DNA of 64,000 bases, taken from Candidatus Binatia bacterium (GTDB lineage Bacteria > Desulfobacterota > Binatia > UBA9968 > JAJDTQ01). The notes under the pieces are model-generated. The model saw nothing but the letters and a program-made list of their open reading frames with translations, made no database searches and was not told where the DNA came from. How positions within the stretch are numbered: the stretch's first letter is position 1; the number at the start of each line of letters is the position of its first letter. This document shows, piece by piece, positions 49,826-55,236 of the stretch. The position numbers and the translations under genes were made by a program. The stretch lies in NCBI GenBank assembly GCA_963666515.2, contig OY762897.2:1600001-1664000 (forward strand), read 5' to 3'.

Positions 49826-51007
49826 TTACCCCGCTTTCTTCTCGCCCTCATTCCAGACCACGGCGCCCGCCGTCGTGGGCACGCACGCGGCCTTGACAGT
49901 ATCCCGGATAATCCCCTTGGGATCCTCGCCCCGCTTGACCGCCTCGATGGCGGTCCGAAGTATCCTGCGGAACATCAGCACCCCTTCATCCGAAGTGACG
50001 TGATGCTCCAGCCGGTGGTTGGCGATCTCGCCCTGCCCTTCCTGGGCTTCCTTGTCGTCGGGATGGCGCTGGCTGTACTCGTAGCTCGTGTCCGACCTTC
50101 CGCCGGGCGCGAGCTTTGCGCGTCCGCTCAAAACGGTCTCGTCCACGTCCTCCGGCATCCACCGGATGTTGGCCGACCTGACGTGCGTGTCGTCCACGGG
50201 AACACAAAAGGAGACCTGGTTTACTTTCGTCGTCTTGAGCTCGTCCGTGTAGACAAGGTGGGCGTTCAGGGGCATGACCATCTCCCAGATCAACTCGGCC
50301 CACCGGCCGCCGTCGAGCTTCTGGACCATGACGAAACGCATGCCCATCTCCGTCTCTTCGTATCGGAGTTCCTCCGGCAGCGAGGTGAACACCTGGGTGG
50401 GGAACTGGGAGCCGCTGTGAAGCGTATGCAGCCACACGGTGTGCAGCGCGTCCATGAGGTTTTCCTCGGTCTGGAGCCAGTTGCAGTCGACGGAACCCCC
50501 AATGCGCGGCCCGAACCTCGCGTAGAATTTCCCTCCCTCATGGACCCAGGCGTCGTACTTGGGAAGCTCCGGCATCTTCTCCAGCGGCCCCATGTAGGCG
50601 AAGACCAGGCCGCCGAACTCCCGCACCGGGTACGCCGGGTGCCATAGATGGTCCTTCACCGTGCTTTCGGGCGGTTCCAGCGGCATGTCGAGGATGCGCC
50701 CCTCCACGTCGTAGAGCCAGCCGTGATAGCAGCAACGCAACCCGTCCCGCTCTACCCGTCCATACTCCAATGAGGTGCCCCGGTGGCTGCAACGAAAGAA
50801 GAGCAGCCCCGCCCGGCCTTCGCCGTCACGGAAGGCGACGAGATCCTCGCCAAGGATGCGGATGCGCTTGGGCAGATCTCCCAGATCGCGGGACAGGCAC
50901 ACCGGCTGCCAGTAGCGGCGCATCAACTCGCCGCAGGGCGTGCCCGGGCCGACACGGGTCAGTTCCGGATCGATTTCGGGGATCTTGAAGCCGTAGGCGC
51001 TCCTCAT
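49826..51007 (-). CDS. Rieske oxygenase alpha subunit, close paralog of 43030..44211
   Basis: Same length (393 aa), near-identical Rieske domain, ENLMDALHTVWLH. Confidence 0.9.
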   Translation of the reverse strand: MRSAYGFKIPEIDPELTRVGPGTPCGELMRRYWQPVCLSRDLGDLPKRIRILGEDLVAFRDGEGRAGLLFFRCSHRGTSLEYGRVERDGLRCCYHGWLYDVEGRILDMPLEPPESTVKDHLWHPAYPVREFGGLVFAYMGPLEKMPELPKYDAWVHEGGKFYARFGPRIGGSVDCNWLQTEENLMDALHTVWLHTLHSGSQFPTQVFTSLPEELRYEETEMGMRFVMVQKLDGGRWAELIWEMVMPLNAHLVYTDELKTTKVNQVSFCVPVDDTHVRSANIRWMPEDVDETVLSGRAKLAPGGRSDTSYEYSQRHPDDKEAQEGQGEIANHRLEHHVTSDEGVLMFRRILRTAIEAVKRGEDPKGIIRDTVKAACVPTTAGAVVWNEGEKKAG

Positions 51008-51155
51008 GGAGACGCTCCTCTCCGGTCCGGATCGTTCAGGACCCTAGAATCCTTGATCGACAGGATCTTGACTCAGGAAGACAAGATATTTGAACTGGAC
51101 TTCGTTCGTACATGAATACTATCGTAGGCCATCGCGAGTTGTAACGCTCGGTAGT

Positions 51156-52763
51156 TTAAGCGACGAGCTTCGCCTCATCGCAAATGGCATCGAGGTTCCT
51201 GGTGATGGCGGCAAAGCGCCGATGGGTCTTGGTATTGCCGCTCACGGCGTCGGGCGCAAGATGGGCCAGGCCGGGGCGAAGGATGCGGTTGTAGACACGC
51301 GTGTAGAACATCGCCACCTTGAGGCCGTGTTCGGTCAAGTGGTAGCGGTAGGCGCCGGGGATGCGCTCGATCAGGCCGTGCAGGCGCAGGCGTCTCAGGT
51401 CGTAACTCATTCGGCCCGGGCGCATTGGACTGGGATCGAGGCCCAGGAGTGCACCGAGGTGCCCGCGCAGGTCGCGGTTGGAGAAGCCGCGGGCCGAAAG
51501 AGTGAACAAGAGCAGGGCCTGCATCAGAGCCTGCACGCGCTCATCGGCGAAGCGCAGGGCCGAGGCGCGTTGTCCGTGGAACTCCAGGCCGCGTTGATGG
51601 CGTTGGAGTTCGTCTTCACCCAGGGCACAGTCGTGGCTGATGGTTTCTATCTGCAACAGACGACGGTTGGCTGTGAAGCCGACCTGGCACAACGCCGCCA
51701 GGTTAGACAGCCGCCGGCCCAGGGCGAAGTCATAGGTGTCGTTGACGGTGGTCTCGGTGCGCAGCGCCTGCCCTTCCTTGTGGTACTGCTTGATGCGCGA
51801 GTGCTTGTAGTCCACGTGCAAGGAAGGGGTGACGCCTGCGGTGATGACCCGGGTACGGAACCGACCGGGGGTGCGCCGGGTGACCCGGCGCTGGAAGATC
51901 AACTGCACCTGGCTGGGGCGACCGAGATCGAGGTTCTCGCGGATCACGTCCTCGAAAAAGACGCGGCCCGAGGCCGGGCGGTCGAGCACCTGGGTCAGGC
52001 TGAACTCCGCTTGCAGGATGGAGATGTCGTAGCGCAGACCGGCGCGACGGTCCTGAGGCGTATACGGATGCGGCAGGCGATCGAACCACTTGCGCGCCAG
52101 TCTGTCGATGAAAGCGGCATCGAAGCCTTCGCAGATCTGTTGCAGCGCCTCGGGGTCTCCGCAGCAGCGCACGCCGTTGTCCAAAGCCTCGAACGGGATG
52201 CCGCGCTCGCGCAACTGGCACTTGGCGTACTCGTTGCCGTTGAGGCACAGCTTGCCGTTGTACGGGAAGTAGGTGCAGAACTTGATGAAGAACGGCCCCG
52301 CCTGTTTGTCCACGCAATAGAAATACACATGGTTGACCATCGCGGTAGACGAGACCACCCACGGATAGGTGACCCCGGTGTCCGGGTTCCGGCGCCGCTC
52401 GGTGCGCATCACACGGGCCTTCTCCTGCGCTATCCCGATGTACAAAACCCCTTCGGTTCCCTTGAACCGCCCCAGGTACTCCTGCGTCACCTCGTCCTTG
52501 CGCTGGCCCTTCTTGAAGTGCACCACCTCGATCTGCTCCCGCTCCGCAAAGTCCTTCACCGCCTGCACGAACTCCCGACTCTTGGGCGCCAGCGCCACCG
52601 TCGACGCAAACCGCTGGCCATGGTGCTTGTGCAGATACCCCACTACCCCGCCCACGCTCTGCAACTGCGGCACATACAGGTTCAAGTACAGGCGATCCAC
52701 CGACTCGTATTCCAGCGTCACGTGATCGCGCAATACTTCCGCTACGGTTTGTGGTAGGCTCAT
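51156..52763 (-). CDS. Putative transposase/Rep-like protein (535 aa) with C-terminal wHTH
   Basis: ESVDRLYLN, ILQAEFS, RIKQYHK, LRTETTVND; wHTH GFSNRDLR...SYDLRRLRLHGLIERIP; GGAG RBS before ATG 52763. Confidence 0.7.
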   Translation of the reverse strand: MSLPQTVAEVLRDHVTLEYESVDRLYLNLYVPQLQSVGGVVGYLHKHHGQRFASTVALAPKSREFVQAVKDFAEREQIEVVHFKKGQRKDEVTQEYLGRFKGTEGVLYIGIAQEKARVMRTERRRNPDTGVTYPWVVSSTAMVNHVYFYCVDKQAGPFFIKFCTYFPYNGKLCLNGNEYAKCQLRERGIPFEALDNGVRCCGDPEALQQICEGFDAAFIDRLARKWFDRLPHPYTPQDRRAGLRYDISILQAEFSLTQVLDRPASGRVFFEDVIRENLDLGRPSQVQLIFQRRVTRRTPGRFRTRVITAGVTPSLHVDYKHSRIKQYHKEGQALRTETTVNDTYDFALGRRLSNLAALCQVGFTANRRLLQIETISHDCALGEDELQRHQRGLEFHGQRASALRFADERVQALMQALLLFTLSARGFSNRDLRGHLGALLGLDPSPMRPGRMSYDLRRLRLHGLIERIPGAYRYHLTEHGLKVAMFYTRVYNRILRPGLAHLAPDAVSGNTKTHRRFAAITRNLDAICDEAKLVA

Positions 52764-52767
52764 GTCC

Positions 52768-52871
52768 GGCTCCGGTTGCTTCGGGCTTTTATGCCCATTT
52801 GACCCTTTGAGGTCCGACCTTGCAAGGTCCCATGACCAGGGATTCAATCCCTGCTACAAGCGACCGGAGCC
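52768..52871. other. Multibranch structured leader (RNA or ssDNA) of the element
   Basis: 14-bp closing stem 52768-81/52858-71 enclosing four hairpins. Confidence 0.7.
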
Positions 52872-52917
52872 AATCCCCTTACCCCCTCGTCGGTCTGAGG
52901 CGAAGCCTCGCTAGGAA

Positions 52918-53017
52918 ATGGCGTCCTTCGACTTCGCTTCGCTACGCTCAGGACGAACGGGAACAGGTTTCCAAACGTTCGTCCTGAGCGTAGCGAAGCG
53001 AAGTCGAAGGACGCCAT
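52918..53017. repeat. REP-like perfect 42-bp inverted repeat with 16-nt spacer
   Basis: ATGGCGTCCTTCGACTTCGCTTCGCTACGCTCAGGACGAACG (52918-59) and its reverse complement (52976-53017). Confidence 0.92.
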
Positions 53018-53033
53018 CTACGCGGGAACGCAA

Positions 53034-53084
53034 ACCGGCCGGGACACGTGGATGGAGAAACCATGCCGGCGTGTCCCGGCCGGT
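53034..53084 (-). terminator. GC-rich hairpin downstream of the tandem tctC genes
   Basis: ACCGGCCGGGACACG / CGTGTCCCGGCCGGT 15-bp stem, short T tract on the minus strand. Confidence 0.5.
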
Positions 53085-53118: not shown

Positions 53119-54111
53119 CTACTTCTTCTGCAAGGCCTCCTTGAATATGGGCGCGTAGTGGTTGATCAGGCCGTAGAAGCCATCAAGCGTCTTGTTCCAG
53201 TCCTCACCCACGACCGGCGACATCTTGGCTTTCATCCTCTTGAACCTGGCGATGACCTCCGGATCCTTCAGCGCCGTCTCGAACGCCTTTTGCAGGATCA
53301 TCTGCCGGTCCTTGGGCATACCCGGCGGAGCGGTGGCCACGCGGTGTGAGGCGAGAACGCTGAGCTGCGGAAAACCCAGTTCCCCTACGGTGGGGACGTC
53401 GGGGTACCTGGGATCGCGCTTGTCCAGGTAGACCCACATGGGCCTCATGTTGCCGTCCTCCACGAACACCATCTGGCCCGGGGAATCCAGGCCCAGGGCC
53501 CTGGCGTGGCCCTCCCCTCTGACGATGCCCATGTTGGCCGCGGGAGCGCCCGGATAACCCAGGATGAACTTCGGATTGAACCCCATGACCTTGGCGGTCA
53601 ACAGGTTCGCGATCCATCCGGTGGCGCCTACCCCCGTGCCGGTGAGAAGGACCTCCTTGGCTTCCTGGAAGTCCTTGAGGTTTTGGAACTTGGTCTTGGC
53701 GCCCACCGCCCAGACGTAGGGGCCGGAGGATATCCGTCCGAGCCAGGAAAACTCCTTCAGCTTGTAGACCGGCTTGGGATCCGCGAACAGCTCGGAGACG
53801 ATGGCCCCGGGGATGTTGACGGTGCCGATGGTGTAGCCGTCTGGTTTGGCTTTCCACAGCAGGTTCCAGGAAATGGTTCCGCCGGCGCCCGGCCGGTTCC
53901 TGAGAATGACGTTCACGCCGAGGGCTTTCTTCAACCCGACGCTCACCGCCCGGCTGTGAAGATCGAACCCGCCCGCGGGTGCGTAGGGGATCAACCACGT
54001 GATGGTCTTGCCCTTCTCCGGCCAAGTCCCTTGAGCTGACGCATCCTGTGCGGGTACCGTCATCCCAAGGACGGCCAACAAAGAAAACACGCCGATCAGC
54101 TTACGCAACAT
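53119..54111 (-). CDS. Bug/TctC substrate-binding protein
   Basis: Signal peptide; PYAPAGGFD, NRPGAGG, KPDGYTI, PDVPT. Confidence 0.9.
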   Translation of the reverse strand: MLRKLIGVFSLLAVLGMTVPAQDASAQGTWPEKGKTITWLIPYAPAGGFDLHSRAVSVGLKKALGVNVILRNRPGAGGTISWNLLWKAKPDGYTIGTVNIPGAIVSELFADPKPVYKLKEFSWLGRISSGPYVWAVGAKTKFQNLKDFQEAKEVLLTGTGVGATGWIANLLTAKVMGFNPKFILGYPGAPAANMGIVRGEGHARALGLDSPGQMVFVEDGNMRPMWVYLDKRDPRYPDVPTVGELGFPQLSVLASHRVATAPPGMPKDRQMILQKAFETALKDPEVIARFKRMKAKMSPVVGEDWNKTLDGFYGLINHYAPIFKEALQKK

Positions 54112-54175
54112 CGAAAACCTCCTTGCCGGTTTGGTGCCTGTGCTCGCTTGTGTCCAGATGGTCCGTTCTCTTCCA

Positions 54176-55162
54176 CTACTTCTGCAGCGCCGCCTTGAAG
54201 ACGTCGCCATGCTCCTGAATCAGGCCATAGAAGTCCCCTAGCATCTTGTTCCAGTCCTCGCCCACCACCGGTTCTATGCGCGCCTTCATCTTGTTGAACC
54301 GGTCCAGCACTTCCGGGTCCCTGGTGGCCGCGTCGAACGCCTTCTGGAGCAGGGCCAGCCGGTCCTTGGGCATGCCCGGAGGAGCGGCCACCACCCGGTG
54401 GGAGGCAAGCACCGAAAGGCCCGGATAACCCAACTCTCCCACCGTCGGGACGTTGGGGAAGTCCGGATCGCGCTTGTCCAGGTAGACCCACATGGGCCTC
54501 ATGGTGCCGTCATGGATGAACGCCATCTGGCCCGGCGAGTCCAGGCCGAGGCCGCGGGCGTGACCCTCGCCTCTGACGATCGCCATGTTGGCGGCCGGGG
54601 CACTGGGGAAGCCCAGTATCTGCTTGATGTTGAACTTCATGACCCTACCGGTCAGGGTCGACGTGACCCACTCCGTGCCGCCGACCCCGGAGCCGGTGAC
54701 GAGGACTTCCTTGGCCTTCCGGAAGTCCTCAAGCGTCTTGAACGGCGTCTTCGCTCCCACCGCCCACATATACGGGGCGGCGGAGATTTGCCCGATCCAG
54801 GAGAACTCTTTCAGGCGGTACTCGGGGGTGGGTGTGCCGAACAGCTCGGAGACGATGGCGCCGGGGATGTTGACGGTGGTGATGGTGTAACCGTCGGGCT
54901 TGGCGCCCCAGGTGAGATTCCATGCGATATTCCCGCCCGCGCCGGGCCGGTTGCGGATGATGATGTTGACGCCGAGCGCCTTCTTCATGCCGATGATCAT
55001 GGCGCGGCTGTGGAGGTCGAACCCGCCGGCCGGACCGTAGGGAATCAGCCAAGTGATGGTCCTGCTCGGATACTTGTCCGCCGAGACGGCCGAACCCGAG
55101 AGGCCGAAGGCCAGCGCGATGATCCCGACCAGCAGTCCTGTCGCAATGCGTTTCGCTCGCAT
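54176..55162 (-). CDS. Bug/TctC substrate-binding protein (tandem paralog)
   Basis: PYGPAGGFD, NRPGAGG, KPDGYTI; long stretches identical to the neighbouring protein. Confidence 0.9.
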   Translation of the reverse strand: MRAKRIATGLLVGIIALAFGLSGSAVSADKYPSRTITWLIPYGPAGGFDLHSRAMIIGMKKALGVNIIIRNRPGAGGNIAWNLTWGAKPDGYTITTVNIPGAIVSELFGTPTPEYRLKEFSWIGQISAAPYMWAVGAKTPFKTLEDFRKAKEVLVTGSGVGGTEWVTSTLTGRVMKFNIKQILGFPSAPAANMAIVRGEGHARGLGLDSPGQMAFIHDGTMRPMWVYLDKRDPDFPNVPTVGELGYPGLSVLASHRVVAAPPGMPKDRLALLQKAFDAATRDPEVLDRFNKMKARIEPVVGEDWNKMLGDFYGLIQEHGDVFKAALQK

Positions 55163-55236
55163 GGGGCACCTCCGAAGTTTCGTTGGCGTCGCCCCCGTAT
55201 GCCACAGGCGCGATGAGCCTGTCAACGAAAGCAGAA

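Follow-up and report, generated by a model that had tools for sequence, protein, structure and literature searches.

A conserved cloverleaf in the leader of a putative transposase gene, the probable core of an antisense RNA in an unclassified insertion element

A cloverleaf fold at positions 52768..52871 (+ strand) of the window, i.e., the whole 64,000-nucleotide stretch of Candidatus Binatia DNA that was analysed, was confirmed as real and as a trait of the element family that carries it. The cloverleaf sits in the 151-nt leader of a 535-aa putative transposase ORF (51156..52763, − strand, ATG at 52763), the single gene of an insertion element that is unclassified. We read it as the core of an ~100-nt antisense RNA whose main job would be to repress translation of the putative transposase by covering its ribosome-binding site (RBS), and put the probability of this reading at about 60%. 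That an RNA is made from the + strand, opposite to the mRNA, is a narrower prediction and a considerably safer one. The argument is carried by the fold, its covariation and strand bias, a conserved −10 motif at a set distance from its first base, the loss of fold and motif together in one lineage, and mini-elements that have no such fold.

In this copy, closing stem P1 was formed by a 5′ arm at 52768..52781 and a 3′ arm at 52858..52871 (+ strand), with 13 Watson-Crick pairs and one G-T pair. Four inner hairpins lay inside it (52783-96, 52801-14, 52816-29, and 52837-53), and a 7-nt single-stranded linker (52830-36) ran between the third and fourth. The 5′ arm held an anti-Shine-Dalgarno (anti-SD) sequence, CUCC (52770-73), the complement of the GGAG Shine-Dalgarno (SD) of the ORF (52770..52773, − strand), which is 7 nt before the ATG in a register conserved in homologs. 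A first-pass annotation, made from the letters of this copy, had placed the helices at these positions with the GGAG inside the closing stem, and had described ~100 nt as nearly all structured. ViennaRNA agreed: on the + strand the same five-way junction was both the minimum free energy (MFE) and the centroid structure (−54.1 kcal/mol, z −7.31, 0/200 shuffles as good). The − strand folded as a near mirror (−53.2), and folding with DNA parameters gave z-scores of −4.95 (+) and −5.32 (−). Rfam 15, which the annotation had named as a check, gave no match at the gathering threshold over the fold in the window and none over the fold in 20 homolog loci, where a single unrelated flanking tRNA was found. 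ARAGORN called no tRNA over the cloverleaf.

The element spanned 51044..52914 (− strand), a length of 1,871 bp that counts the CTAG at either end; nine identical copies were found, and their flanks were unrelated. It had no terminal inverted repeats (TIRs) and a fixed tetranucleotide junction, two features of the IS91 type. The cloverleaf had originally been assigned to the 5′ end of the element; the end itself is at 52914, and it bears a hairpin of its own. The left end (52886..52914, + strand) was a 29-nt motif, near-invariant in 63 homologs, that included a terminal hairpin GAGGC-GAA-GCCTC (52897-52909, + strand), separate from the cloverleaf, and finished with CTAG (52911-14, + strand). 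The right end (51044..51155, − strand) terminated in TCAAGGATTCTAG and carried the family motif TCAAG-N-CTAG; CTAG was found in 107 of the 110 right ends called. At ~112 nt the right end was longer here than the usual ~50 nt of the family, and the family word CTTGACTC was inverted in it. Among 124 left ends the tetramer was CTAA in 105, CTAG in 11, CCAG in 4, TTAG in 2, and TTAA in 2. A single 4-nt junction restored interrupted frames, such as an ORF in L018 that we take to be CopC-like, and was compatible with either G or A. Constancy of the left tetramer inside each element lineage hints that it may be element-borne.

Homologous loci numbered 160, of which 146 included the ORF start and 124 had the same left end. 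A closing stem of at least 8 bp, with the SD on its 3′ arm, was present in 123 of 125 leaders (the 124 and the window). Dereplication below 90% identity gave 68 representatives, and five rows with mis-registered helices (L049, L062, L092, L115, and L156) were dropped, leaving 63. Across these the fold domain measured 85-109 nt, a multibranch structure of ~97 nt. In a sequence-only MAFFT alignment of the 63 leaders, double-sided changes occurred at 17 of the 20 named pairs. In total, 89.1% of alignment cells could pair, compared with 76.5% after shuffling and at most 49.3% with partners slid, the paired structure having been derived from the same sequences as were counted, which favours structure. 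The middle hairpin was near-constant, with one C-G pair in 62/63. The four hairpins first described hold for this lineage but not family-wide: three were counted in 39/63, two in 23 and one in 1, by a hairpin finder that merges neighbouring hairpins and so limits these counts.

A covariance model of the fold found 16 of 19 held-out leaders, scoring best on the antisense strand. It also matched the copies in cultured Burkholderia sp. YI23 (antisense 61.2 bits, sense 28.3) and in Rhodococcus koreensis. Nothing was found in 19 loci at ~21-39% protein identity, many of them partial, nor in L329 (25% identity), and L326 (41%) gave only 11 bits. Because the model was unconvincing in these relatives at or below 41%, the fold is taken as shown only for the subfamily at ~53% identity or more.

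The strand was read from the non-Watson-Crick pairs of the closing stem. Read on the mRNA strand, isolated pairs of this kind were A-C in 37 cases and G-U in 5, so that on the opposite strand G-U prevails by 37 to 5. Mapped on a tree built from the proteins of 61 homologs among the 63 (L005 and L082 were omitted as frameshifted), these represented at least 34 versus 13 independent changes in favour of the antisense strand (p 0.003). Four-base loops of the form cYNYGg were found in 24/52 cases on the antisense strand, 1/52 on the sense strand, and 7/428 in shuffles. Nine of the antisense loops were cUUCGg, against none on the sense strand, and nine were cCUCGg; UUCG is an RNA-stabilising loop. 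Against the antisense reading, wobbles of the inner hairpins had no strand bias (31 versus 27), and raw folding energies were equal (−52.2 for each strand; antisense lower in 28/63). The z-scores favoured antisense mildly (39/63, p 0.018). The disagreement among wobbles noted at first is true of this single copy and does not extend across the family, in which closing-stem wobbles, together with the UUCG and CUCG loops, favour the + strand, opposite to the mRNA.

A structure that works only in the sense leader would hide the RBS in transcripts reading in from outside, the antisense motif being incidental or an outward promoter. The predicted probability that the SD is unpaired was 0.000 in a transcript from the left end versus 0.607 for a start at SD−60, so that GGAG would be closed in the first and open in the second; the sense fold is stable in its own right (z −6.43), and IS200 has such a stem (PMC4513863). 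This reading is nevertheless unlikely. The closing stem accumulates A-C mismatches, which weaken the sense fold; only on the other strand do the stable tetraloops have their proper sequence; and a −10 motif keeps register with the fold's first base and was lost along with the fold. The proposal that the fold buries the RBS stands as a predicted mirror effect in read-through mRNA, and leaves the strand bias and the promoter motif unexplained.

The predicted promoter is an extended −10, TG-G-TAGGCT (52752..52760, + strand), inside codons 2-4 of the opposite-strand ORF. At the level of the motif, a promoter opposite the 5′ end of the transposase gene was a family feature: in a six-position window upstream of the first G of the stem, antisense TAnnnT was present in 60/63 homologs and in 22/705 host genes whose start region is of the GGAG-ATG type. 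When this window was moved along the ORF bodies, the motif frequency averaged 1.0% and peaked at 14.3%. The TGn of an extended −10 was found in 46/63 homologs versus 19/705 host starts, and the motif lay 7 nt before the stem in 47/61. Read in reverse, bases two and three of codon 3 supply its TA. This codon encoded Leu (23), Ile (23) or Val (15), about equally, and among 6,677 codons of this type across the ORF bodies only 287 had the corresponding nTA form; the constraint is therefore on the DNA and not on the protein. In this copy the position of the motif predicts a + strand start at 52767 or 52768.

Several observations at this site stood against the antisense reading. A sigma-70 scan that required a −35 returned no promoter, and no U-tract followed the closing stem; one weak terminator-like site was found at +52771-85. 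No conserved sense promoter was seen across the 63 leaders, and overlap of the RNA with the mRNA thus stays presumed. The best sense −10-like site, at SD−70..−61, was a weak cluster in only 18/63 leaders and was missing from this copy; where present it would fit a convergent arrangement. One clade (L028, L030, L036, L039, L041, and L077) kept the −10 motif and the fold and had no ATG, GTG or TTG at the usual start position; its start codon may be non-canonical. Among the functions first suggested for the cloverleaf, an element-encoded ncRNA is the one that gained support, from the covariation, the strand-specific wobbles and tetraloops, and the conserved −10 motif.

Under the antisense reading, RNA polymerase would start at 52767/52768 on the + strand from the promoter inside the first codons of the gene, and the closing stem would protect both ends of the RNA. 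Pairing would begin at a loop or at a single-stranded linker and then run through the closing stem, covering GGAG; the ribosome would be blocked and the predicted transposase would stay off. Positions 3-6 of the predicted RNA are the anti-SD, so complementarity to the RBS is present. The RNA would be diffusible and could for that reason act on all nine copies, giving multicopy inhibition as in IS10. The mirror fold in read-through mRNA would hide the RBS and serve as a second lock.

Two features sit less well with such an RNA. The most stable helix keeps the anti-SD paired and leaves no free 5′ tail, and, since a cis-encoded antisense RNA is complementary automatically, the multibranch shape and the near-constant middle hairpin exceed what pairing needs. 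For these reasons the main rival is that the same antisense-strand RNA acts chiefly by binding the protein of the element, either as a cofactor that modulates it or as a decoy that imitates the single-stranded hairpins of the element ends. Words of the form GACC/GACCG are common to the helices and the left end, and the RNA and the terminal hairpin favour one strand, as protein binding would have it. The RNA is, however, not essential, as the elements L017 and L024 lack the fold and have open ORFs; its 5′ end falls exactly over the SD; and free variation is seen in the last hairpin and in how many hairpins there are (3 or 4). We consider protein binding as the principal role doubtful, and equally doubtful the fuller form of the idea, in which structured ncRNAs of a novel class bind and tune a TBP-fold (Rep_trans-like) transposase in an unclassified rolling-circle insertion sequence (IS) family of very large size. 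Were it true, a Rep_trans enzyme would for the first time have an RNA partner, and the RNA would not be a plain antisense repressor.

Antisense control of transposases is already known; what is new here is the multibranch fold without an Rfam match. The TnpA of IS200 is an HUH enzyme. In PMC4513863, RNA-OUT of IS10 is described as a cis-encoded antisense RNA over the translation-initiation region of the transposase, acting in trans on all copies. By analogy with the RNA-OUT/RNA-IN pair, the RNA predicted here would likewise lie over the transposase translation start region. RNA-OUT pairs through one terminal loop domain (PMC4513863), whereas the fold seen here has three or four hairpins inside a closing stem, and the RNA predicted from it spans the SD, its start being ~4 nt short of the AUG. 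The present element, unlike IS10, is not of the TIR/DDE kind. The same source describes, for IS200, the ~90-100-nt antisense RNA art200 over the 5′UTR and an SD-sequestering stem in the tnpA 5′UTR (PMC4513863). The present element resembles IS200 in the size of the predicted antisense RNA, the terminal hairpin at the left end, the SD-hiding mirror structure and the lack of TIRs; art200 differs in also covering the first three codons (PMC4513863). There was no sequence or Rfam similarity to art200. Countertranscript RNAs of rolling-circle plasmids, such as those of pT181 and pMV158 (RNAII), provide antisense control of a rolling-circle initiator. Compared with these, the controlled gene here is in a chromosomal insertion sequence, and no attenuator terminator is seen in its leader. 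The Rep of pT181 is a Rep_trans protein (PMC5714925).

Two of the 125 leaders, those of L017 and L024, had neither the stem nor the −10 motif, and their frames were open (531 codons). A quick tree placed them as sisters nested among fold-bearing elements (SH-aLRT 100); the fold and the motif were therefore lost once and jointly. One genome held six left ends of the L017/L024 type, five of them at contig ends. The left flanks of L017, L024, L036, L041, and G706 shared a TTTC..AA/G..ACA/GGAGA-C(C/T)AG-like sequence that looks like an end of another IS (IS630-like), which suggests nested insertions.

A search for left ends in 401 genomes, then in four rich genomes, gave 104 loci, and in none did the flanking sequence retrieved contain the ORF. 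Of these, 41 were complete mini-elements (90-432 bp), which included sets of 6, 4, 3, and 3 copies at ≥90% identity with mostly unrelated flanks. The RNA covariance model found no cloverleaf in any of the 104 mini-element or left-end loci. The fold is therefore not needed in cis for movement, which argues against a single-strand origin. Such an origin was among the first suggestions. In the form considered here, the fold would be an ssDNA signal, a lagging-strand origin or a single-strand promoter, on the strand displaced in rolling-circle transposition. The model of the protein does resemble rolling-circle initiators, the favoured strand also bears the c(GNA)g terminal hairpin, and G-T wobbles are tolerated in DNA too. 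A single-strand origin would be required in cis in every mobile copy, and the fold is absent from both the multicopy mini-elements and L017/L024. In addition, cUUCGg is an RNA-type loop, and with DNA parameters this copy shows no preference for the + strand. We regard the ssDNA signal as improbable.

The loop type c(GNA)g is a DNA-type loop. It was on the + strand of the terminal hairpin in 50/63 homologs, the cloverleaf and the terminal hairpin favouring the same strand, and the left end was kept in mini-elements. On both counts the terminal hairpin (52897-52909) is a better candidate than the cloverleaf for a DNA recognition site, and the left end, distinct from the cloverleaf, is likely the predicted cis site of the transposase. 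In many elements a long terminal hairpin arises because the left end recurs as a second, inverted copy 40-70 nt further in: L030, L033, L040, L043, L049, L050, L053, L055, L060, L116, L128, L150, L154, and the mini-elements of G513. This second copy may be a record of template switching at the end. Five genomes (G320, G350, G442, G491, and G513) contained 12-45 left-end motifs each, many in non-autonomous mini-elements and some in tandem. The copies in G320 had a common left flank, GTTTCA(G/T)(C/G), and the copies themselves mostly ended in TTAG. The smallest mini-element was ~67 bp (L193). L093, tried as a circle junction, was rejected, being a full element followed by a 102-bp mini-element. 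No end-to-end circle junction was found in the contigs of four runs, for the two copies compared; contigs drop rare forms. Viral contigs yielded neither a relative nor a left end.

Bridge RNAs and omegaRNAs, the analogy drawn at the outset, come to mind because the element has no TIRs and would encode a structured ncRNA transcribed towards one of its ends. TnpB omegaRNA is a structured ncRNA of a small mobile element, and the IS110 bridge RNA likewise comes from such an element. An RNA of the guide or bridge kind would specify target or donor DNA. The nine targets shared only CTAG, and the longest word they had in common with the RNA averaged 5.67, compared with 5.87 at random CTAG sites. Cognate and permuted pairings across the family were similar, both for targets (5.78 versus 5.63±0.15, n=37) and for right ends (6.00 versus 5.85±0.12, n=37); no loop covaried with the targets. 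The fold lay at a variable 36-167 nt from the element end in the 63 homologs, the protein had no DEDD or RuvC family match, and, unlike IS110 and omegaRNA systems, the element has no target-matching loops and dispenses with the RNA in one lineage. A guide function is accordingly the least credible of the roles considered, and very improbable.

The 535-aa protein had no significant match in Pfam, NCBIfam, PHROG or PDB sequences. The Pfam Rep_trans profile did not match it, neither did any DEDD recombinase or RuvC nuclease family of Pfam or NCBIfam, and no HUH transposase family matched; fold searches returned TBP/Rep_trans instead. A model of the N-terminal domain (residues 1-378, pLDDT 93.1) was TBP/Rep_trans-like. 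Its top Foldseek match was RepSTK1 4CIJ (E 5.3e-4, probability 0.99, TM 0.27/0.35). VIA-align, covering the top 1,000 of Foldseek, aligned 174 residues with TBP 1MP9 (Z 9.2, rmsd 3.8), 188 with 4CIJ (Z 7.3, rmsd 4.2) and 179 with RepDE 4CWC (Z 6.9, rmsd 4.7). A whole-protein fold search gave only a winged helix, at residues ~382-500 (Z 9.3), plus weak TBP/4CIJ rows. With these middling scores, the modelled N-terminus resembles a TBP-like catalytic fold, common to RepSTK1 4CIJ and RepDE 4CWC.

In 30 sequences D23 and E253 were invariant and Y327 and E337 were present in ≥90%; their order along the sequence, and that only, matches the one described for the metal ligands and the catalytic tyrosine in Rep_trans proteins (PMC13107129, PMC5714925). 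By order, D23, E253, E337, and Y327 in KQYHK correspond to D46/D142/E214/Y191 and KHYYM, and a MarR-like winged helix follows as in the archaeal Rep-Arvir (PMC13107129). Tyr-to-Glu spacing is 10 residues here, versus 20-23 in Rep_trans initiators and Rep-Arvir, which replicate plasmids or viruses or transfer ICEs and are not described for insertion sequences (PMC13107129). The protein also differs from Rep_trans initiators in having no Pfam match, with a modest TM of 0.27-0.35 (Foldseek) and Z of ~7. The element is like IS91 (PMC5714925) in its lack of TIRs, fixed junction tetranucleotide, and asymmetric ends, of which the one upstream of the gene bears a hairpin. The modelled catalytic fold, in contrast to IS91, would be TBP-like and not HUH. 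We infer a rolling-circle, IS91-like mechanism with a different enzyme, and put it no more firmly because the fold scores are modest and the residues were matched by their order along the sequence. We know of no antisense cloverleaf in IS91.

The protein family was very large, with at least 8,000 significant members (8,000/8,000 scored candidates) and 1,214 clusters at 50% identity (E up to 1e-30), spread across many phyla and annotated as 'hypothetical protein'. A literature search on ncRNAs of new IS families gave no description of such an element, and one for Rep_trans-fold insertion sequences, with most subscription journals outside its reach, found none. For this large family of hypothetical proteins the present analysis predicts a control RNA whose fold is not in Rfam. 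Its promoter is predicted precisely and could be silenced without changing the protein, a direct route to switching the element on in the laboratory, which would open the study of a possibly new transposition chemistry. Because mini-elements keep the cis ends without the regulatory RNA, the two are separable, and a minimal donor is defined.

On the chromosome, a 103-bp palindromic repeat with 42-nt perfect arms (52915-53017) abutted the left end and had dozens of relatives in the genome; we take it to resemble a REP doublet. An allele lacking both the element and this repeat was present in contigs of three of the four runs, with 51042/51043 joined to 53017/53018. Two tandem paralogous TctC-family solute-binding protein genes occupied 53119-55225, and a second perfect inverted repeat with 15-nt arms (53034-53084), downstream of a TctC-family gene, was probably a terminator or a small repeat. 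On the other side of the element was a Rieske oxygenase gene (49826-51007). Elsewhere in the genome, G000:C1:2645461-2645643 was a decayed relic of a related element, comprising half a cloverleaf with the ORF start and an internal piece of the ORF, joined by deletion.
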